A model generated the notes under the pieces. It ran no database searches and had not been told where the DNA came from. It saw only the letters and a program-made list of their open reading frames with translations. A stretch of DNA of 64,000 nt from the IMG/VR virus record IMGVR_UViG_3300020577_004280, positions 32,001 to 96,000 of that record; one strand, 5' to 3'. The position numbers and the translations under genes are program-made. Origin of the DNA: a virus (taxonomy: Duplodnaviria; Caudoviricetes). Shown here in pieces: positions 2,116 to 35,153 of this stretch (the stretch's first letter is position 1; each line of letters begins with the position of its first letter).

Positions 2116-3017
2116 GTATAGAAAATTTCATTAATCTTGGTGGATGGCATAGAGACGATAGAGCGGTCGAAGAAGCTCTTAAACAATTAAGTGTGCCACG
2201 TATATGTCAGTCTCCTATTAATGGAACTGGAGAAGGTAAAGTAGCATTATTGTATCAACCTATAGTTAAATTAGCTGGTAAATATCCATTGCGCCTTCAG
2301 CGCACAGGGGATTGCGTATCTATGAGTACGGCTGGTATGGTAGATAATTTGACCGGTATACAGCATTTTATACTTGGTACTAATGAACCTTGGATAGCAG
2401 AATGTGCTAGTGAAGTTATATATGCTGGTAGTAGAGTCGAAATAGCTGGCGGTCAACTAGGCGGTGGAGCCGGGTCAAATAATATTTGGGCGGCAAAATT
2501 CGTGGCCCAATACGGAACATTAGTCAGAAAAAAATATGGTAATATAGATTTAACTACATATAGTAGTTCTAGAGCTGACCAATGGGGTATGCCTAGAAAT
2601 GGCGTACCAAATGAATTAGAACCTTTCGCTAAAGAACACTTAGTAAAAACATATTCACAAGTGAGAACGTGGGAAGAATGTAGAGCAGCTCTTAGTAATT
2701 TTTACCCGGTCACAATTGCTAGTAACCAAGGTTTTAGTAGTAATCGTCAAAAAGACGGATTTGCATCTCCACAGGGCAATTGGGCGCACTCAATGCTTTT
2801 AATAGGATGTAAAGATGATAATCGTCCCGGCGCGCTATGTATGAACTCTTGGGGCGTGTGGAATAGTGGACCAAAAGGTGATTATGATATACCTGATGGT
2901 AGTTTTTGGATTGACGCACAAGTATTAGAGAGAAACATCTTATCCCAAAATGACTCATTTGCGTTTTCAAATTACCAAGGTTTTGAGCCGCAAGATTTAG
3001 ATTTAAGATGGTCCTAA
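2112..3017 (+). CDS. papain-like (C1) cysteine peptidase
   Basis: Q-x-x-G-D-C (QRTGDCVS), His in WAHSM, Asn in MNSWG. Confidence 0.8.
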   Translation: MSIENFINLGGWHRDDRAVEEALKQLSVPRICQSPINGTGEGKVALLYQPIVKLAGKYPLRLQRTGDCVSMSTAGMVDNLTGIQHFILGTNEPWIAECASEVIYAGSRVEIAGGQLGGGAGSNNIWAAKFVAQYGTLVRKKYGNIDLTTYSSSRADQWGMPRNGVPNELEPFAKEHLVKTYSQVRTWEECRAALSNFYPVTIASNQGFSSNRQKDGFASPQGNWAHSMLLIGCKDDNRPGALCMNSWGVWNSGPKGDYDIPDGSFWIDAQVLERNILSQNDSFAFSNYQGFEPQDLDLRWS

Positions 3018-3122
3018 AATAATATTAGAACACATATGATGTATTTTGGTTTTGTATTTGGTCCGCCAATTATTAGTCTATTAATTCTCTTACTCGGATT
3101 TAAAAAATAAAGAAAAACAATT

Positions 3123-3728
3123 ATGAAATTTATTTTACTTATATTATTCACTTTATCTATTATTGGTTGTAGTAAACCTTATACTAAACTCTCTACTGAG
3201 GATTTGGTTACAGCTGAGGGTTTTACTGCTATTAGTGTAGCTTTATATCAAAAAAATGAACCAGTTGCTGTAAAAGAAGAAGATATTAAAGCTGTTCAAC
3301 AAGTAGTAAATGATGTTGTAAAAGTTCTACCAACTTTAATTAAACCTGAACCAGTCAAAGTACAACCCAAAATAATTGTACCAGAGAAGTCTAACCAAAA
3401 GACATCAGAAGTTATTACACCTAAAAAATATCTACGATTACTGAGCGCTGAAGCCGGATGTGGGTCATGTATACACCAAGATATGATTTTAATTGGTTCT
3501 GATTGGATTATTTTAAATGGTGATGAGAAAGCTAACGAAAATAAAATACCATATCACGGTATTCATGAACGTGTAAAATCACTAAACGATGAAACAAATC
3601 CTTTGTGGGTAAAATATAACGCATCATCTGTTCCACATTGGGACTTAATTGTAGATGGCAAAGTTGTAAATACAGTAGAAGGAGTATTAGATAGAAGCGA
3701 GCTACGTAGATTCTATCTATCCAAATAA
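3123..3728 (+). CDS. lipoprotein with C-terminal thioredoxin-like fold
   Basis: Lipobox IIGC; CGSC motif; SVP cis-Pro-like motif followed by VDGKVV. Confidence 0.6.
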   Translation: MKFILLILFTLSIIGCSKPYTKLSTEDLVTAEGFTAISVALYQKNEPVAVKEEDIKAVQQVVNDVVKVLPTLIKPEPVKVQPKIIVPEKSNQKTSEVITPKKYLRLLSAEAGCGSCIHQDMILIGSDWIILNGDEKANENKIPYHGIHERVKSLNDETNPLWVKYNASSVPHWDLIVDGKVVNTVEGVLDRSELRRFYLSK

Positions 3729-26665: not shown

Positions 26666-27190
26666 ATGAAAATAGTCTTTACATCATTATTTGCTAATCC
26701 GTTTCATGGTGGACATTTAGCTCTCTTAAAAGCAGCCAAACAGCTTGGTGATAAACTTGTAGTTATAGTTAATAGCGATGCTCAAGTGAAAATTAAGGGA
26801 AGCAAACCATTCTTATCTCATGATGAACGCTTAGATATTATCCGAGAACTAAGGTGCGTAGATGATTGCTGTATAGCAGTAGACGAAGATGGAACTGTTG
26901 CGGAAACTCTCGCTAGATTAGTACAACATTATAATGTTCAAAGCTTATTTCAAACTGTGGTGTTTAAAGAACCAGAACACGAATATATCTTCGCTAAAGG
27001 CGGGGATAGAAAAAATACGGCAAGTATGCCGGAAAGTGAATTAATAGTGTGTCAAAAATTTGGTATTGAGATTGTATACGGGGTTGGTGGATTTGATAAA
27101 AAGAACTCATCGTCAGCTATTCTAGATGGTTTAGAGAACAATCCATCAAGAATTGTAACGCGAAGTGACCCATTACCTTTGGAATCATAA
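26666..27190 (+). CDS. cytidylyltransferase family (HxGH; RfaE/TagD-like)
   Basis: PFHGGH, VNSD, KGGD, SSS. Confidence 0.85.
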   Translation: MKIVFTSLFANPFHGGHLALLKAAKQLGDKLVVIVNSDAQVKIKGSKPFLSHDERLDIIRELRCVDDCCIAVDEDGTVAETLARLVQHYNVQSLFQTVVFKEPEHEYIFAKGGDRKNTASMPESELIVCQKFGIEIVYGVGGFDKKNSSSAILDGLENNPSRIVTRSDPLPLES

Positions 27191-27731
27191 TATGTTAAAA
27201 GATAGAATATTAGAGTTGGTAAATAGACCGAATTGTTATAGAGTAATATTTGAACATGAGTCATATGGAGCGTATTTTTGCACATGTTATATTGATGACG
27301 GTAGAGTTATGTATAAAGGCTATGGACAAGATGATGATACAGCTTTTGAAATAGCAAATAAAAACCGTTTAATGTTTAAAGAACTATCTATATCGCTAGA
27401 TAAGATTAATTTTAAATCATATACTAGTGTAGAATTGATTAAGCAAAACGGTTTTCGTATTGCTGTGCTTTTAGATAAAAATTTAAAGCGAAAAATTATT
27501 AGAGAGATTGATAAAATTGATGAGGATGAATTTATAGTATGGAACCAACCACAACTATTGAAAAATTTTTGTATTGATAATCATATTGAATTGATTGCAT
27601 CAAACGATAATATCGGTTTATATAGATATTCTAGTAGAACACGCGGACCTTTATGTGGTTCGGGCGGTTTGATAAAAGTTGATACTCTTACACAAAGGGT
27701 TATATCTAGCAAAATGGAATGGATATCATGA
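27165..27731 (+). CDS. hypothetical protein
   Basis: ORF. Confidence 0.6.
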   Translation: MTHYLWNHNMLKDRILELVNRPNCYRVIFEHESYGAYFCTCYIDDGRVMYKGYGQDDDTAFEIANKNRLMFKELSISLDKINFKSYTSVELIKQNGFRIAVLLDKNLKRKIIREIDKIDEDEFIVWNQPQLLKNFCIDNHIELIASNDNIGLYRYSSRTRGPLCGSGGLIKVDTLTQRVISSKMEWIS

Positions 27732-28036
27732 TTAATAAATACGTCGCAGTAATAGTAAATGATTATGACGACGGATTATATTGTATGACGATAACAGAAT
27801 ATATCCCATTTCAATCTAGATACACAAAAGATGAGATTGATATAGAATATTTTAAAAATATTTGTAAACAACCATTTAAGTCATTTAAATTGCTTGATAC
27901 AGAAATACATATTACTAATAATAATAGGCTTGAAGAAGTTTGTACAATTCAGGCATGGTTCACAGGATACGCCGTAGGCGTCAAAGACGAAACTAAAGAA
28001 GAAATGCGTCAACGAATAAATTCACAATATAAATAG
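27719..28036 (+). CDS. hypothetical protein
   Basis: ORF. Confidence 0.55.
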   Translation: MDIMINKYVAVIVNDYDDGLYCMTITEYIPFQSRYTKDEIDIEYFKNICKQPFKSFKLLDTEIHITNNNRLEEVCTIQAWFTGYAVGVKDETKEEMRQRINSQYK

Positions 28037-28219
28037 GTCCGCTGGACAGGAGGAATAATGTGTTTACATTAAAATTAGCAAACGGTAAAGAGGCTTCTTT
28101 TGAGTCAGCTAGCGATTTAGCTAACTGGTATCAAAAGGAAAAAAGAGCATCGCTCTCATCAACTAAAGCAAACAAAACAAATAACAACTCAAAGAGTGAG
28201 AAGGGAAACGACGTAGAAA

Positions 28220-31200
28220 ATGTATAGTTATCAAGAAGCCTTAGATGCTTCTACTGAGTATTTCAGCGGTGATGAATTAGCCGCAAGAGTGTTTGTTGAT
28301 AAATATGCCTTACGAAATAACGATGATGAAATTCTGGAAAAGACGCCAGATGATATGCACCGTCGGCTTGCTAAAGAGTTTGCTAGAGTTGAAAAAAATA
28401 AATTCAAGAATCCGTTAACTGAAGATGAAATTTTTGAGTTATTTAGAGGGTTTAAGAGGATTGTTCCGCAGGGAAGCCCGATGTATGGTATCGGAAACCC
28501 TTACCAGTACGTAAGTTATGGAAATTGTTTCGTAATACCAAATCCGACCGACTCATACTTAGGAATAATGTATACTGATACGCAAATAACTCAGATTAGT
28601 TCCAGACGCGGGGGTGTGGGGTGGGATGTATCTGATTTACGTCCGGTTGGTACTAGCGTAAAAAATGCCGCTAAGAGTACAACTGGAACGATATCTTTCA
28701 TGAAAAGATTCTCTAATACGGTTAGAGAAGTAGGACAATGTGTTTGTGAAGGAGAACGCGTTTTAACTGAAAACGGCCTAAAACCAATAGAAGAAGTTAT
28801 CATTGGAGAAAAAGTATGGACAAAATCCGGTTGGATAGTAGTAAAAAACTTACATGCTAATGGTGTAAAACCAATATATGAATTGACATCTGATTTTGGA
28901 TATAAAATCAAAACCTCCAACCAACACGTATTTCTTAATGAAGAAATGAAAGAAGTGACTCTAGAAGATTTAGAAATTAATGATAAAATCGTAATTATTC
29001 CAGGTAATCACAAATTTACTAAAGAATATGTCAAGTTTAATTCCATAAACTATATAAGACATGAGTATAATAATTCAAATAGATTAGTAGAATACACACT
29101 ACCACAAATTTTGGACGAGGAGTTAGCATACTTTTTAGGATATTCTTATGGAGACGGATGTATAGATAATACCTATATATCGTTAGCCGCTACACACGAT
29201 TATCCGGAAATAGAAAATAAATTAGCACGTATCATTAAAGCCAAATTTAACTACAACGCTAAAATTAGTCAAGGCTGTGGAGCGGTCAATACCGTTGATA
29301 TATATTCAAAATATATTGTACAATGGTTAAGAGAGAACGGTATAGCGAAAGGAAAATCTGCAAATTTAGTTTTCCCAGAGAAAATCAAGCAAAGTCCAGC
29401 TTCAGTGCAAGCGGCTTTTTGCTCCGGTTATTTTGATGCTGACGGAACAGCTAAAAGTAATAAAAAAGGATATTCGGTTACTTCTATAGATTACGATTTT
29501 ATTCACGAATATCAAAATACGATAATGTCATTAGGGGTTCCCAGCAAAGAACATTTTCAGAAATCTAAAATCCAGAATTGGAAAGATAAATGGTCCATAG
29601 CTGTTACCGGCACATACGCAAAAACACTATTTAAAGAAATATTTTCTGAATCAGTTAAAGTAAAACTTGCTAATTTTACATCTAGTATAGATAAACTTTT
29701 AACCCCATATAAAGCAAAACAACTAAATATTAGTAGAAAAAAAGAAAACAATTATTGTGCTGGAGAGCCTTATTATTTAAGCTGCAACTGTCTTAAAAAA
29801 CTAAAAGAAGACGGATATAAAACACCTGAAGTATTAGTTCAAGATAGTGTTAGAAGTATAGAATATATTGGAGAACGCGAAACATTTGACCTAGAATTGG
29901 AATCAGAACATTTATTTTATTGTGAAGGGTTTTACATTCATAACTCGGGGCGGCGTGGAGCCAGCTTGCAGTCTTTAGCAGTCAACCATCCTGAAATCTT
30001 AGACTTTATTAAAGTAAAACAAGACCTTACTCAAGTTACTGGCTCTAATATCTCTGTTAAATTTACAGATGAATTCTTACAATCTGTAGAAAAAGATAAA
30101 GAGTTTGAATTAAAATGGCCGGTAGATTCTGATACTCCAAAGATTAGTAAAGTTGTAAAAGCTAAAGATATTTGGAAAGAATTTATACATTCCGCTTGGT
30201 TGATGGCCGAGCCAGGAGCTATGTATTGGGATACTGTAATCAGACGTAGTACAACTGCTCCATATAGAAAATTCGGCTACATTGAAAAGTCATCAAATCC
30301 ATGTATATTAAAAGGAAGTTTAGTTAATACTCCTAATGGATATAAAAAAGTAGAAGATATTAAAAAAGGAGATTTAATTTCTACTGTGTTAGGAAGCGAA
30401 TCAGTAGAAAATATTGATATTAATAGTAATGTACCGACGTTTAAAGTTACATTTAGTGATGGCGGCGTTCAGTATGTTACCGAATCACATATCTATCACA
30501 CTATTCCGTCGCAGAAAGTTAGGATTCTTCCTAAGAAAGTAAGTGAACTCGAAACAGGAGATGCTGTAAGAGTTTACCAATCTCCTCTTAAAGATAAAGG
30601 CACAGAAGAAGATTACAAATACGAATTAAAGCAAGGAATTTTAATTGGCGACGGGTGTTATACGCCAAAAACAGTTAAAGAAAGCTATATTTCTATTTCT
30701 TGTAATATTGATGAGCAATTGTATATTGATAATTTAAAAAAACTATTTGGAACAGAAAATTTTGCAAAAGACCAACCAGCCAAAGACGGTTCAAAATCAT
30801 ACGATTTATTGGTAAAAACAAAATCGGTATCTGAATTAATTCAAAAACCTGGATATTCTTATGAAAAATATCTTGAAATAGAAAGATATGACAACATTAG
30901 TAAAGTAATTGGAGTTTTGGATGGGATGCTTGCGACAGATGGGAATGTGAACTTAAAGTCTAATCACGCTCAAGTTAGATGGATGACAACATCTCCACAG
31001 CTTGCTCAAGATATTAGAAAGCTATTATTGACTATTGGATGTCATGGTTTTATTAGTAAATCAAATGATAAAAGCGGAAAAATTAACGGCAGACAAATTG
31101 TAAGAAAACATCCAAAGTATACTATCACAATTTCAGGAAATTCTATTCAAGCATATTGTTTATATTCTAGAATTGCAGAAATACATCCAGAAAAAGGAGA

Positions 31201-32923
31201 AAAACTTAAACGGGCACAGATTGATTTCAAACTTTCAGGTAATTGTTGGACAGTAAAAGTCAAAAATATAGAACCGTATACTGTAGGAGAAGTATACGAT
31301 TTATATTGTAAAGAGAGTGATAGCTGGATTACTGAAGGTTATGTACAATACGGATGTGGCGAGCAATATCTCCCGCCATACGCATCATGTCGCCTAATCC
31401 TAATCAACCTATATACTTACGTCAAAAACAGATTCACTAAAAAAGCGTATTTTGATTTTGAAGAGTTTGTTAAAGATGTTCGCAACATGCAACGTCTTGG
31501 TGATGATATGGTTGATTTAGAGTTAGAAGCTGTTGACCGTATTATTAAGAAGATAAAATCTGACCCAGAATCAGATGAAATTAAAAAACCCGGTCTAGAT
31601 TTATGGAAGAAAATTAAAGAATGTGCTATTAATGACCGTAGAACAGGATGTGGTTTTACAGCCCTCGGCGATTGTGTAGCTGCTCTTAATCTAAAATTCG
31701 ACTCTAAAGAATCATTGGATTTTATAGATAAAATGTCAGAAGCACTTAAAGTAGCTGCTTTTACAGAATCAGTAGAGATGGCTAAAGAATTGGGACCATT
31801 TCCGATATATGATAGTTCACTGGATATCTCTTCTGAATTTGTACAAGAGCTAAGAGATGAGCATCCAGAATTATATAAAAAAATGGTTAAATATGGTCGT
31901 AGAAATATGACATTATTAACTGTCGCTCCAGCAGGTAGTGTAAGCTGTGAAACACAAACAACATCTGGTCTAGAACCAACTTTTATGTTGGAATATAAAC
32001 GTCGTAAAAAGGGTAATCCCGGCGATAAAGACTTTAGAAGCGATTTTATAGACCAAAACGGTGACCATTGGATGGAATTTATAGTACGTCATCACGGTTT
32101 ACAAGAATGGATGGATATCACCGGCAAAACGGATATTAAAGAAAGCCCGTATCATGGTTCTACAGCACATGACATAGATTGGGTAGAAAAAGTAAAAATG
32201 CAGAGTATTATTGGTAAGCATATAGATAATTCCCTTTCAGTTACAGTTAATCTACCAAACGATGTTACAGAAGAAAAAGTGTCAGAGATTTATCTTACAG
32301 CATGGAAAACTGGCTGTAAAGGTATGACTATTTATAGAGATGGATGTAGAACCGGAGTATTGGTTTCTAACGAAACACCAAAACAAAGTGATAAACTCTG
32401 TAAAACTAATGCTCCACCAAGACCAAAATCTTTACCATGCGATGTACATCATCTTACTGTTAAAGGAGTTAGGTATTGTGCCATCATAGGTTTAATGGAA
32501 AATGAACCATACGAAGTCTTTATCATGAGAAACTGTAATAGTGAAGGTGATTCCATTATCTCACGTACTGTCACCAAAGCAAAACTTGATAAACAGAAAC
32601 GCGGTCACTATAATATCATAGGAGATGATGAAGAGGTTATTTATCAGATTGTTTCCGCGAATTGCGAGGAACATGAAGAGATGTTGGCTCGCATGACTTC
32701 TACAGCTTTAAGACATGGCTCCGATATTAGTTTTATTGTACACCAATTGGAAAAAACTAGAGGTGATATGCAGAGTTTTAGCAAGGTTATCGCCAGAACA
32801 CTTAAAAAATACGTACCTGATGGTACTGAAGTTAAAGGTGAAATTTGTCAGAATTGTAGCGGTAAATTGATTAGAGCATCAGGATGTATTGAGTGTCCAA
32901 ACTGTGGATGGAGTAAGTGCTAA
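28220..32923 (+). CDS. nrdJ: class II (B12-dependent) ribonucleotide reductase with two inteins
   Basis: GNCF, GQ|SGRRGA, NP|CGE, APAGS, GCKGMTIYRDG, C-terminal TSCPD-like domain and CxxCGWSKC. Confidence 0.9.
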   Translation: MYSYQEALDASTEYFSGDELAARVFVDKYALRNNDDEILEKTPDDMHRRLAKEFARVEKNKFKNPLTEDEIFELFRGFKRIVPQGSPMYGIGNPYQYVSYGNCFVIPNPTDSYLGIMYTDTQITQISSRRGGVGWDVSDLRPVGTSVKNAAKSTTGTISFMKRFSNTVREVGQCVCEGERVLTENGLKPIEEVIIGEKVWTKSGWIVVKNLHANGVKPIYELTSDFGYKIKTSNQHVFLNEEMKEVTLEDLEINDKIVIIPGNHKFTKEYVKFNSINYIRHEYNNSNRLVEYTLPQILDEELAYFLGYSYGDGCIDNTYISLAATHDYPEIENKLARIIKAKFNYNAKISQGCGAVNTVDIYSKYIVQWLRENGIAKGKSANLVFPEKIKQSPASVQAAFCSGYFDADGTAKSNKKGYSVTSIDYDFIHEYQNTIMSLGVPSKEHFQKSKIQNWKDKWSIAVTGTYAKTLFKEIFSESVKVKLANFTSSIDKLLTPYKAKQLNISRKKENNYCAGEPYYLSCNCLKKLKEDGYKTPEVLVQDSVRSIEYIGERETFDLELESEHLFYCEGFYIHNSGRRGASLQSLAVNHPEILDFIKVKQDLTQVTGSNISVKFTDEFLQSVEKDKEFELKWPVDSDTPKISKVVKAKDIWKEFIHSAWLMAEPGAMYWDTVIRRSTTAPYRKFGYIEKSSNPCILKGSLVNTPNGYKKVEDIKKGDLISTVLGSESVENIDINSNVPTFKVTFSDGGVQYVTESHIYHTIPSQKVRILPKKVSELETGDAVRVYQSPLKDKGTEEDYKYELKQGILIGDGCYTPKTVKESYISISCNIDEQLYIDNLKKLFGTENFAKDQPAKDGSKSYDLLVKTKSVSELIQKPGYSYEKYLEIERYDNISKVIGVLDGMLATDGNVNLKSNHAQVRWMTTSPQLAQDIRKLLLTIGCHGFISKSNDKSGKINGRQIVRKHPKYTITISGNSIQAYCLYSRIAEIHPEKGEKLKRAQIDFKLSGNCWTVKVKNIEPYTVGEVYDLYCKESDSWITEGYVQYGCGEQYLPPYASCRLILINLYTYVKNRFTKKAYFDFEEFVKDVRNMQRLGDDMVDLELEAVDRIIKKIKSDPESDEIKKPGLDLWKKIKECAINDRRTGCGFTALGDCVAALNLKFDSKESLDFIDKMSEALKVAAFTESVEMAKELGPFPIYDSSLDISSEFVQELRDEHPELYKKMVKYGRRNMTLLTVAPAGSVSCETQTTSGLEPTFMLEYKRRKKGNPGDKDFRSDFIDQNGDHWMEFIVRHHGLQEWMDITGKTDIKESPYHGSTAHDIDWVEKVKMQSIIGKHIDNSLSVTVNLPNDVTEEKVSEIYLTAWKTGCKGMTIYRDGCRTGVLVSNETPKQSDKLCKTNAPPRPKSLPCDVHHLTVKGVRYCAIIGLMENEPYEVFIMRNCNSEGDSIISRTVTKAKLDKQKRGHYNIIGDDEEVIYQIVSANCEEHEEMLARMTSTALRHGSDISFIVHQLEKTRGDMQSFSKVIARTLKKYVPDGTEVKGEICQNCSGKLIRASGCIECPNCGWSKC
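28739..29944 (+). mobile_element. intein 1 in RNR (402 aa, LAGLIDADG)
   Basis: C1 ...IHN|S; LGYSYGDG, SGYFDADG. Confidence 0.9.
30302..31354 (+). mobile_element. intein 2 in RNR (351 aa), atypical C-terminus
   Basis: NP|CILKGS...VTESH...VYDL...EGYVQYG|CGE; GILIGDG, DGMLATDG. Confidence 0.8.
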
Positions 32924-32981
32924 CATCGCTACTAATATATAGTTTAGCAACATTAGGTATCTTACTAAGTAAAGTAATATA

Positions 32982-33404
32982 ATGAATAAAACAGTAGTAA
33001 ACATCAGAACCGAAATTCGCGGTATAAGAGCCAACGATTTTATATATGATGATTATTCAACAACAGGACCAACAAATATGACATTTAACGATTATCAAGA
33101 AGAAGCTATCAAAACCGCGATTTATCCACAAGAATACAAAATTATGTACCCGGCTATGGGACTTGCTGGTGAATGCGGAGAAATTTTAAATAAAATCAAG
33201 AAAGTATACAGAGATAAAAATGGAGAATTCTCAGATGAGACAAAATTAGCTCTATCGCTCGAACTTGGTGATGTTTTGTGGTATGTAGCCGCATTAGCAA
33301 ACGATTTAGGGGTAGGCTTAAATGCTATCGCCGGAGATAATATAGCAAAACTCTCTTCTAGAAAAGAGCGTGGAGTTATTGGTGGAAGCGGAGACAACAG
33401 GTAA
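32982..33404 (+). CDS. MazG-like NTP pyrophosphohydrolase
   Basis: GLAGECGE, ELGDVLWY, GSGDNR; possible start 33078. Confidence 0.9.
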   Translation: MNKTVVNIRTEIRGIRANDFIYDDYSTTGPTNMTFNDYQEEAIKTAIYPQEYKIMYPAMGLAGECGEILNKIKKVYRDKNGEFSDETKLALSLELGDVLWYVAALANDLGVGLNAIAGDNIAKLSSRKERGVIGGSGDNR

Positions 33405-33628
33405 TGTTTGGACTTTTTGAAGAATGGGATATGTTAATGTTAGAAGCCTATCTAAGCCGCCCATTAACAGAGAAAGAAAAAGAAAGAATTAAAAATCCAG
33501 AACTGCACGAAGATTCGATAACTGTAGTTTGTCAAAATAAAAAACGAATATATCACTATTTTTCTACTGGAGATAGTAATCAATGGAATCTTAGTTCTAT
33601 TATAGAAGATGAATTATGTACGAATTAA
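33404..33628 (+). CDS. hypothetical protein
   Basis: ORF. Confidence 0.5.
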   Translation: MFGLFEEWDMLMLEAYLSRPLTEKEKERIKNPELHEDSITVVCQNKKRIYHYFSTGDSNQWNLSSIIEDELCTN

Positions 33629-33870
33629 ATCCAGACGGATGTGGCGATGTTTGTGGGTGTCATCATGTAGAATTATGGATTATAGATGAAAACGGAAAAC
33701 GGAAAGAAATGGTTTGGGATTCTGGATGGGTTTCCGAACCATATAGAGACGAGCAAGATAAAAAAGCTTTTATTGATGATACGTTAGAAGGACTTGCTAA
33801 ATTTGGACTTACGCTGAAATCATGTAATTTCAATGATTATTGGGATTGGGAATGTATACCTATTGGTTGA
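33616..33870 (+). CDS. hypothetical protein
   Basis: ORF. Confidence 0.5.
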   Translation: MYELNPDGCGDVCGCHHVELWIIDENGKRKEMVWDSGWVSEPYRDEQDKKAFIDDTLEGLAKFGLTLKSCNFNDYWDWECIPIG

Positions 33871-33880
33871 GGAACAAAAC

Positions 33881-34432
33881 ATGAGAAACTGTCTAGTATT
33901 GAATTCAGATTATACCCCGCTTGATATTATAACTTGGCAAAGAGCTTTTCTAATGATATTTGGAAATAATAAAAACGCTTATGCTATTGAATATCACGGA
34001 ACTACTATTAAAGATAGTGTTGGTCGCATACACGCTTTACCATCTATAATAGTATTGAAAAAGTTTATCAACAACGCTCAAAATAGCATAGCTCCATGCA
34101 AGTATACGAGAACAAACGTGTTTACACGAGATGATTTCAAATGTATGTATTGTGGCAACAAATTCAAAAGTGAAAATCTAACTATTGACCACGTTATTCC
34201 CTTATCAAGATATAAGAAATTAGGCTTTAAAGGAAATCCCAACGGATTAGATAATGTAGTCGCCGCTTGCTATAAGTGTAATGTTAAGAAAGGTAACCAT
34301 ACATGTGATGAATGTAAAATGTACCCTCTGAAAAAACCAAGGAGAGTCACCAAGCGTGAAGCCCTTGTCAACAAACTTCGCAATATGAAAATTCCTCAAG
34401 AATGGGAAAGCTACATAAATAATGTCAACTAA
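33881..34432 (+). CDS. HNH endonuclease (McrA-like)
   Basis: LVLNSDYTPL, RDDFKCMYCG, TIDHVIP, NVVAACYKCNVKKG. Confidence 0.85.
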   Translation: MRNCLVLNSDYTPLDIITWQRAFLMIFGNNKNAYAIEYHGTTIKDSVGRIHALPSIIVLKKFINNAQNSIAPCKYTRTNVFTRDDFKCMYCGNKFKSENLTIDHVIPLSRYKKLGFKGNPNGLDNVVAACYKCNVKKGNHTCDECKMYPLKKPRRVTKREALVNKLRNMKIPQEWESYINNVN

Positions 34433-35153
34433 AAGACGAACTACTCACACAAGTGGTAAAAACCATAGTCAAAAATCTTCAACTCCTCCTGCGAATAAAG
34501 ATTCAATTGTTATGTATCAACAGTTGAAACCTAGAACTCCAAATCAAGCAGAATTTATTAGGACTGTCAGTGAAAACGATATTACTATCTGTGATTCACC
34601 AGCCGGTGTTGGGAAAACCAGTCTTGCTGTAGGTATTGCTTTAGAGCATTTGCGTGATGGTAAAATTACTAAAATTATTATAGTTAGACCAACTATTGAG
34701 GCGTCTAAGCGTGGTCTTGGTTATCTCAAAGGTGACCTTGATGATAAGTTGGCGCCATACATGATACCTCTATTTGAACAAATAGATGAGTATATTGGTA
34801 AATCTAAACGAGAATATCTTGTAACCAAAGAAATCATTAAGGTTGAATCATTAGAATTTTTCCGTGGGCGTAATCTTAAGAATTGCTATCTTATCGTAGA
34901 TGAGTGTCAAAACGCTACAGAAAAACAATTAAAGATGGTAATGACCCGTTTATGTGAAAATAGTAAGGTAATTATTCTTGGTGATACAGACCAGACAGAC
35001 CTACCTCATAGTGAAGGTGGAGCGTTAGATAAATGTATTGACGTATTAGACGGTGTTGAAGGTGTTGGTATTTGTTATATGGATTATTCCGATATTCAAC
35101 GCCTACCAATAGTTAAACGAGTTTTGGAAGCATTTGAGAGGAGTGAAAATTGA
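34422..35153 (+). CDS. phoH: PhoH family ATPase
   Basis: PAGVGKT, RP, GYLKG, FRGRN, DECQN, GDTDQTD. Confidence 0.92.
   Translation: MSTKRRTTHTSGKNHSQKSSTPPANKDSIVMYQQLKPRTPNQAEFIRTVSENDITICDSPAGVGKTSLAVGIALEHLRDGKITKIIIVRPTIEASKRGLGYLKGDLDDKLAPYMIPLFEQIDEYIGKSKREYLVTKEIIKVESLEFFRGRNLKNCYLIVDECQNATEKQLKMVMTRLCENSKVIILGDTDQTDLPHSEGGALDKCIDVLDGVEGVGICYMDYSDIQRLPIVKRVLEAFERSEN

Follow-up and report, generated by a model that had tools for sequence, protein, structure and literature searches.

A Gly-ended intein at the catalytic cysteine of a phage class II ribonucleotide reductase belongs to a widespread clade that may splice without cyclisation of its terminal residue

The DNA analysed here, a window of 64,000 nucleotides from a tailed virus (positions 32,001 to 96,000 of IMG/VR record IMGVR_UViG_3300020577_004280, Caudoviricetes), carries on its plus strand a nrdJ gene (28220..32923, identified as an open reading frame with Pfam matches) for the 1567-residue precursor of a class II, that is, adenosylcobalamin-dependent, ribonucleotide reductase (RNR). 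This precursor is interrupted by two LAGLIDADG inteins, the second of which, hereafter intein 2, ends in Gly and is the subject of this report. The nrdJ product matches Ribonuc_red_lgC (PF02867, 1.3e-75) and Ribonuc_red_lgN (PF00317), followed by TSCPD at its C-terminus, and in translation its exteins are intact, with B12-dependent class II RNRs (7b9p and T. maritima NrdJ, 1xje) as their best solved matches. Judged from its sequence, the product is a class II RNR with an NPCGE finger-loop motif once the insert is removed, and with a predicted dependence on B12. A search of the virus's own genome, a 154-kb record whose completeness is ~82% by CheckV estimate, shows nrdJ to be its sole RNR large-subunit locus.

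Intein 2 (30302..31354, plus strand) is 351 residues long, as defined by translation, Pfam, homologues, an AlphaFold2 (AF2) model and Foldseek. Its frame is open (CILKGS...TESH...VYDL...WITEGYVQYG, preceded by ...KSSNP and followed by CGEQYLPP), which gives the full layout ...KSSNP/CILKGS...VTESH...two LAGLIDADG motifs...VYDLYCKESDSWITEGYVQYG/CGEQYL, where slashes mark splice junctions, and its last codon is a GGA for Gly351 that ends at 31354. The insertion lies exactly before the Cys of NPCGE, because the alignment of the N-extein to solved NrdJ proteins stops at ...SNPC (residue 322 of 1xje, residue 476 of 7b9p). This Cys+1 (31355..31357), the C-extein nucleophile, at which the 1xje alignment ends, is invariant among relatives and becomes after splicing what is established for class II RNRs as the thiyl-radical Cys at the tip of the finger loop, so the 351-residue insert must be removed for the enzyme to be active. 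An insert at the RNR catalytic Cys, with an open frame, LAGLIDADG motifs and a final Gly, is what the initial annotation had described, and translation and Pfam bear it out; the span that it gave, 30302-31357, starts correctly but ends one codon too far, 31355-31357 being the codon of Cys+1.

Three other ways of reading this insertion were considered and rejected. Moving the junctions to NPC/...GC/GE would make the intein start with Ile or Val and leave a +1 Gly. With cleavage after Gln349, the NPCGE loop would retain two additional residues that vary, and position 349 itself is Ser or Asn in many members. An RNA-level intron does not fit, since hundreds of copies have an open frame and conserved protein motifs up to the final codon.

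Used as a query, the intein region retrieved 111 RNR proteins that cover intein 2 end to end (28-76% identity), 110 of which end in Gly/Cys (34-76% identity), the exception (P0109) ending in Asp. Across these 110 relatives, the N-terminal nucleophile Cys1 in block A (30302..30304), Thr60 and His63 of the block B TxxH motif Thr60-Glu-Ser-His63 (30479..30490) and Asp333 of VYDL, the usual block-F aspartate (31298..31300), are invariant (110/110 each). So is Asp340 (31319..31321), which sits in a Ser-Asp-Ser-Trp context as the 12th residue from the end. In the homing endonuclease, the first LAGLIDADG motif (30635..30661) has G112, L114, G116, D117 and G118 conserved in at least 98 of the 110, and the second, GVLDGMLATDGNV (30911..30949), keeps G204, G208, D213 and G214. 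Both motifs retain the catalytic acidic residue (D117 in GILIGDGCY, D213 in GVLDGMLATDGN), which suggests that this copy is probably still mobile. Pfam places Hint_2 at the N-terminus of intein 2 and LAGLIDADG_3 internally (PF14528, 3e-9, residues 202-283). The AF2 model, built with 33 relatives, is of high quality (mean predicted local distance difference test, pLDDT, 91.7; predicted template-modelling score, pTM, 0.91), and Foldseek matches it to endonuclease-bearing inteins, TliVMA (7qsu, E 9e-17) and then PI-SceI and PI-PfuI (1ef0, 1vde, 1dq3), the splicing lobe matching the gp41-1 mini-intein. HINT fold, in-frame insertion, Cys1, TxxH, block-F Asp and +1 Cys are thus all present, but the cyclising terminal Asn, Gln, Asp or Glu is replaced by Gly351, and intein 2 fits a class 1 LAGLIDADG intein in every feature examined except this one.

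The Gly end is far from being confined to one phage. When a single genome from each prokaryotic species was scanned with the pattern VYDL[YF][CE][EKP]x[ST]D, of which the intein end is not a part, 80 loci were found, and 80/80 end in Gly/Cys. Their hosts are archaea (Woese-, Nano-, Aenigm-, Micr- and Thaumarchaeota, Thermoplasmata) and bacteria (many Chloroflexota, along with Acidobacteriota, Patescibacteria, Bacteroidota, Nitrospinota, Caldisericia and Clostridia), including gammaproteobacterial methanotrophs such as a Bathymodiolus gill symbiont. Ten of the 80 loci are mini-inteins (132-159 residues) from which the endonuclease is gone while the tail is unchanged. A profile of eight mini-inteins, compared with 1.84 billion representatives clustered at 50% identity, had 2777 matches at E <= 1e-3 (229 at E <= 1e-10), and among the best 150 of these 2777, 81 further representatives share the Gly tail. 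This brings the non-redundant Gly-ended splicing domains to 179, all with Gly/Cys, Cys1, Thr-x-x-His and the block-F Asp, spread over phages, at least six archaeal lineages and many bacterial phyla. A search for homologous inteins ending xxG/C at NP/CGE, proposed at the outset, is thereby answered by 179 non-redundant relatives, and the suspicion that the allele might be unique gives way to the picture of an ordinary member of a large clade, which, as part of the explanation towards which we lean below, would also be an old one. Comparison by blastn with the phage collection gave short extein matches only and no near relative of the region, and a scan of viral contigs with intein 2 as single query gave one distant match (L003, 32%).

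Such numbers also dispose of the idea that sequencing or assembly corrupted an ordinary His-Asn end, a scarcely credible option for which nothing speaks beyond the rarity of Gly ends in the literature. The junction letters were read independently in assembled metagenome contigs from studies other than the probable source, and contigs of two such studies, X2 (riverine) and X4 (freshwater), cover 31352-31357 with zero differences. In addition, the closest relative (76% identical) ends VQFG/CGE, and the whole 12-residue tail of intein 2 differs from a canonical one, as had been noticed at the start in arguing that a single miscall was unlikely. A normal His-Asn or His-Gln end was looked for and appears neither in these contigs nor in close homologues.

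What has changed in this tail is best seen by comparison with the other intein of the same protein. Intein 1 (28739..29944, plus strand, 402 residues; Pfam Intein_splicing and LAGLIDADG_3) is a canonical LAGLIDADG intein, GQ/CVCEGERV...FYIHN/SGRRGA, inserted in the Q-x-G-RRGA motif and ending in His-Asn/Ser. The tails of inteins 1 and 2 align gap-free (ETFDLELESEHLFYCEGFYIHN vs EVYDLYCKESDSWITEGYVQYG), and the block-F His, penultimate His and terminal Asn of the former correspond to Asp340, Tyr350 and Gly351 in the latter. Of 98 distinct Asn-ended tails found elsewhere in the same proteins, 70 have His as the 12th residue from the end, whereas none has Asp. This ungapped comparison, these 98 tails and Mtu RecA His429, which we take to be the counterpart of Asp340 among block-F histidines, place Asp340 at the block-F His position. 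The three residues lost from intein 2 are precisely those to which Asn cyclisation is assigned, the block-F His acting on the terminal Asn (PMC4031507).

In the Gly-ended clade, the residues that took their place are unequally constrained. The consensus of the 110 tails is ...[ST]D[TS]W[IV]T.G[YV]V[QSN]xG/C[GAS]E, and the last three residues (Gln349-Tyr350-Gly351 in intein 2, 31346..31354, delimited by homologue comparison) are clade-wide a polar residue (Q/S/N), a variable one that is mostly Arg (74/81 genomic copies) and the invariant Gly. The complete set of residues invariant in the 110 relatives comprises Cys1, Thr10, Gly13, Thr60, His63, Asp333, Asp340, Gly346, Gly351, Cys+1 and Glu+3, and the Asp340 position is Asp in 81/81 genomic copies and 81/81 new representatives. 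Since all four Gly codons (GGA 36, GGC 21, GGT 14, GGG 10) and both Asp codons (GAT 47, GAC 34) are in use for Gly351 and Asp340 in the 81 genomic copies, this conservation acts at the amino-acid level. At the penultimate position (31349-31351), intein 2 has Tyr and its closest relative, P0003, has Phe; the splicing kinetics of this phage lineage may differ, or this may be a residue that splicing can do without. An apparent exception with Ala 12th from the end was a pattern match inside extein sequence, with no intein, and was discarded.

Need for splicing can be gauged in cells, where ten intein-bearing genomes were inspected, among them long-read contigs of 10.4, 4.2 and 3.7 Mb, a 0.8-Mb Aenigmatarchaeota scaffold and the RefSeq genome of a Bathymodiolus symbiont. 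In 10/10 the intein-bearing nrdJ is the only locus with a class I/II RNR barrel (PF02867), and a class III NrdD was not found in 9/10. The phage and the ten hosts would be left without a working enzyme unless the insert is removed and NPCGE re-joined. The tenth genome, a Thaumarchaeota metagenome-assembled genome (MAG; L071), has a weak NrdD-like gene (G009:C19:111325-112788, PF13597, 95.8 bits) ~1.5 kb from its intein-bearing nrdJ, which is the only possible second RNR among the ten.

These results bear directly on whether splicing can be completed at all. Were it not, the phage RNR would be dead, or active as a precursor, and intein 2 a decaying parasite, as might be supposed of an intein in which the terminal Asn/Gln/Asp and both assisting histidines are absent and Tyr takes the penultimate place that Arg holds in most relatives. 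However, the splicing residues and the Gly are strictly conserved in 179 sequences despite synonymous codon turnover, both LAGLIDADG motifs and the exteins are intact, and nrdJ is the only class I/II RNR locus of ten cellular genomes out of ten. True decay looks different, as illustrated by P0319, where Ser stands in for Cys1 and Gly for Asp340, and neither LAGLIDADG Asp survives. The inactive enzyme that the initial annotation had entertained is therefore very unlikely, considering the purifying selection on Gly, splicing residues and exteins. As a separate observation, P0319 is a free-standing derivative of 325 residues without exteins that still has the block B TESH and the final Gly. Excision with outside help, be it from a partner protein or from a protease of host or phage, is hardly more plausible. 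It would suit an intein with no cyclising terminal residue, but the same intein is found in phages, DPANN and other archaea, Chloroflexota, Patescibacteria, Acidobacteriota and Gammaproteobacteria, and dependence on a host factor is improbable because a homing element so dependent could hardly have spread so widely; besides, a protease would yield two fragments and no ligated active-site loop. We infer that intein 2 is a genuine and mobile intein and that it almost certainly splices.

A clue to how splicing might end comes from the one odd relative of the first search. P0109 belongs to an Asp-ended clade at the same NP/CGE site, mostly from Ktedonobacteria and other Chloroflexota, which was sampled as the best 120 of 462 matches plus nine sequences among the 50% representatives. 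This clade resembles the Gly-ended one in its site, its CVTGDTLV.T start, its VYDL..EP...TW.T.GY tail, its LAGLIDADG core and its atypical end without penultimate His. It differs in that its tail reads ...T[LI]TW[IV]TNGY[CV]S[LF]D/CGE, with Leu or Ile in place of the Asp of the Gly clade and with a terminal Asp that can still cyclise, whereas Gly cannot. Among 275 non-redundant sequences, 179 pair Asp at the 12th position from the end with a last Gly and 96 pair Leu or Ile with a last Asp, and none shows a mixed state. The prototype of Asp-ended RNR inteins is reportedly Chy RIR1 of Carboxydothermus hydrogenoformans, said to have been described by Amitai, Dassa and Pietrokovski in 2004, a study cited in PMC4760082, and possibly located at the same NP/CGE site. 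More distant allelic relatives, at the NP/C site of another NrdJ subfamily, are Asn-ended (P0341 and P0347 finish ...EPDTSHFVANGVVVHN/CSEY, P0313 finishes ...AN/CSEY). A FastTree tree of splicing domains, rooted on these three sequences and built after masking the four columns under test, recovers a monophyletic Gly clade (support 0.31) whose sister is the main Asp-ended clade, with two Asp-ended lineages diverging earlier (support 0.95). The simplest reading of these sequences is that the terminal residue would have changed from Asn to Asp and then to Gly.

Putting these elements together, steps 1 and 2 would proceed as in class 1 inteins, with an N-to-S shift at Cys1 aided by Thr60, His63 and Asp333, followed by transfer of the acyl group to Cys+1. 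For step 3, the usual cyclisation of the last residue is ruled out, as Gly lacks a side chain. We propose instead that Asp340 supplies the carboxylate that the sister clade has on its terminal Asp. Lying on the strand that neighbours the end, at the place from which the block-F His contacts the terminal Asn in ordinary inteins, Asp340 could cleave the Gly351-Cys+1 amide of the branched intermediate by activating water as a general base or, with lower probability, by a direct nucleophilic attack that forms a transient anhydride. Gly351 would leave room for this attack, and the neighbouring strand would in effect have taken over a carboxylate that the terminal residue used to carry. This role of Asp340 in Gly-Cys cleavage is one that we infer from residue patterns, and the explanation as a whole – a splicing-competent Gly-ended clade that carries out step 3 with a relocated carboxylate – is one that we consider, with modest confidence, to be probable. 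Non-canonical resolution of the branch, an option given for intein 2 at the outset alongside sequence error and inactivity, is hence the one favoured by inference, the other two having been set aside.

Alternatively, the Gly-Cys bond might be broken by sulfur chemistry with Asp340 as a helper only, which we regard as possible but rather unlikely. In one version, Cys+1 would undergo an N-to-S acyl shift at Gly351-Cys+1 and its freed amine would take the N-extein; in another, once Cys+1 holds the N-extein, the Gly carbonyl would be attacked by the thiol of Cys1, by then free and partnered by His63 in the manner of a cysteine protease. Both would leave an intein thioester that could close into a head-to-tail ring, as opposed to the linear intein with a free Gly carboxylate expected from hydrolysis by Asp340. 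Gly-Cys is indeed among the few peptide junctions that readily undergo an N-to-S acyl shift (PMC2898641). Cys1, His63 and Cys+1 are invariant, but they are just as invariant in ordinary inteins, so they do not account for what sets intein 2 and its clade apart. Hedgehog proteins, whose Hint domains belong to the same superfamily, autoprocess at a Gly/Cys scissile junction too, although this is the N-terminal junction of Hint in Hedgehog and the C-terminal one in intein 2. Above all, sulfur chemistry accounts neither for the presence of Asp at the block-F His place solely with a Gly end nor for the Asp end of the sister clade. Whichever chemistry applies, we would give even chances to a broader proposition, namely that these inteins form a further mechanistic class derived from Asp-ended ancestors, which dispenses with terminal-residue cyclisation and uses either a protease-like, non-terminal Asp on the Gly-Cys bond or sulfur chemistry that releases a circular intein.

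Several points weigh against the relocated-carboxylate explanation. (i) P0341 and P0347, the nearest allelic relatives with an Asn end, read Ser-His-Phe in the relevant stretch, where the His stands one position further on than it normally does, so the statement that Asp replaces His is true by comparison with the general consensus and not with every relative. (ii) Monophyly of the Gly clade is poorly supported (0.31), and the tree is rooted on three distant Asn-ended sequences. (iii) The pairing of Asp with Gly and of Leu with Asp mirrors two clades and may thus reflect one event instead of repeated covariation. (iv) The usual penultimate Arg is Tyr in intein 2, hence this residue is not essential. 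(v) The incompleteness of MAGs weakens the sole-RNR statement for single genomes, even if the result is uniform across the ten.

How do these inteins compare with known systems? Reviews from 2014 and 2023 list terminal residues that are Asn or, rarely, Gln, Asp or Glu (PMC4031507, PMC10663303). No mention of a Gly-ended intein was found in the literature searched, which lay mostly outside subscription journals and included PMC4031507, PMC4760082, PMC3653736, PMC10663303 and bioRxiv 10.1101/2025.01.02.630785. PI-SceI, TliVMA, PI-PfuI and intein 1 share with intein 2 the fold, Cys1, TxxH, block-F Asp, +1 nucleophile and homing endonuclease, but canonical class 1 inteins have a block-F His, penultimate His and terminal Asn where intein 2 has Asp, Tyr (mostly Arg in its clade) and Gly. 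Gln-ended RNR inteins, such as that of Chilo iridescent virus (PMC4031507), have in common with intein 2 an RNR host and an atypical last residue; unlike Gly, however, Gln can cyclise to a glutarimide, and the textbook step 3 still applies. By their residues, Gly-ended inteins are set apart from the Asn, Gln and Asp types, and they most likely excise by chemistry absent from the intein reviews searched.

This has implications for intein biology at large, since cyclisation of a terminal Asn, Gln or Asp is held to be the obligatory step 3 and is the base of every intein cleavage/ligation tool, and yet a large natural clade at the radical Cys of an essential enzyme appears to manage without it. 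The clade suggests a hitherto undescribed mechanism for cleaving one particular peptide bond within the HINT fold, which, if true, would offer protein engineering a succinimide-free chemistry for C-terminal cleavage and would exemplify how a catalytic group can shift between strands during active-site evolution. The natural mini-inteins (132-159 residues) are compact material for biochemistry and structures. On a practical note, intein finders that demand a terminal Asn or Gln would miss or mis-bound Gly-ended inteins.

Some further observations concern individual inteins. Four of the mini-inteins, in NrdJ of methanotrophs and mussel symbionts (L075, L078, L079 and L080, at ~3016-3414 of each locus), are 132-133 residues long and have Thr in place of the otherwise invariant Gly346 (...SDTWITETIVNRG/CGEQ). 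P0028 (residues 553-1166) has tandem inteins at one NP/C site, an Asn-ended one (...SSHTYWANGVDVSN) and then a Gly-ended one (CVRVGTLVNT...YVQRG/CGEI); because the two adjoin directly, Cys1 of the second is the +1 nucleophile of the first. In the class I RNR P0360 (residues 723-955), a related intein at the equivalent catalytic-Cys site (SNL/C...) ends in Gly-Gln/CSEI, and across RNR classes this site hosts Asn-, Gln-, Asp- and Gly-ended inteins. Relatives without intein 1 run ...EV[GC]Q[AH]GRRGASLQS straight through its site, and as the closest relative, P0003, lacks intein 1 yet has the Gly-ended one, the two inteins are gained and lost independently.

Finally, nrdJ lies within a phage nucleotide-metabolism block (26666-35153 of the window) that also comprises a cytidylyltransferase-like gene (26666-27190), MazG (32982-33404), a free-standing HNH endonuclease (33833-34432) and PhoH (34422-35153), together with four small open reading frames without a Pfam match.

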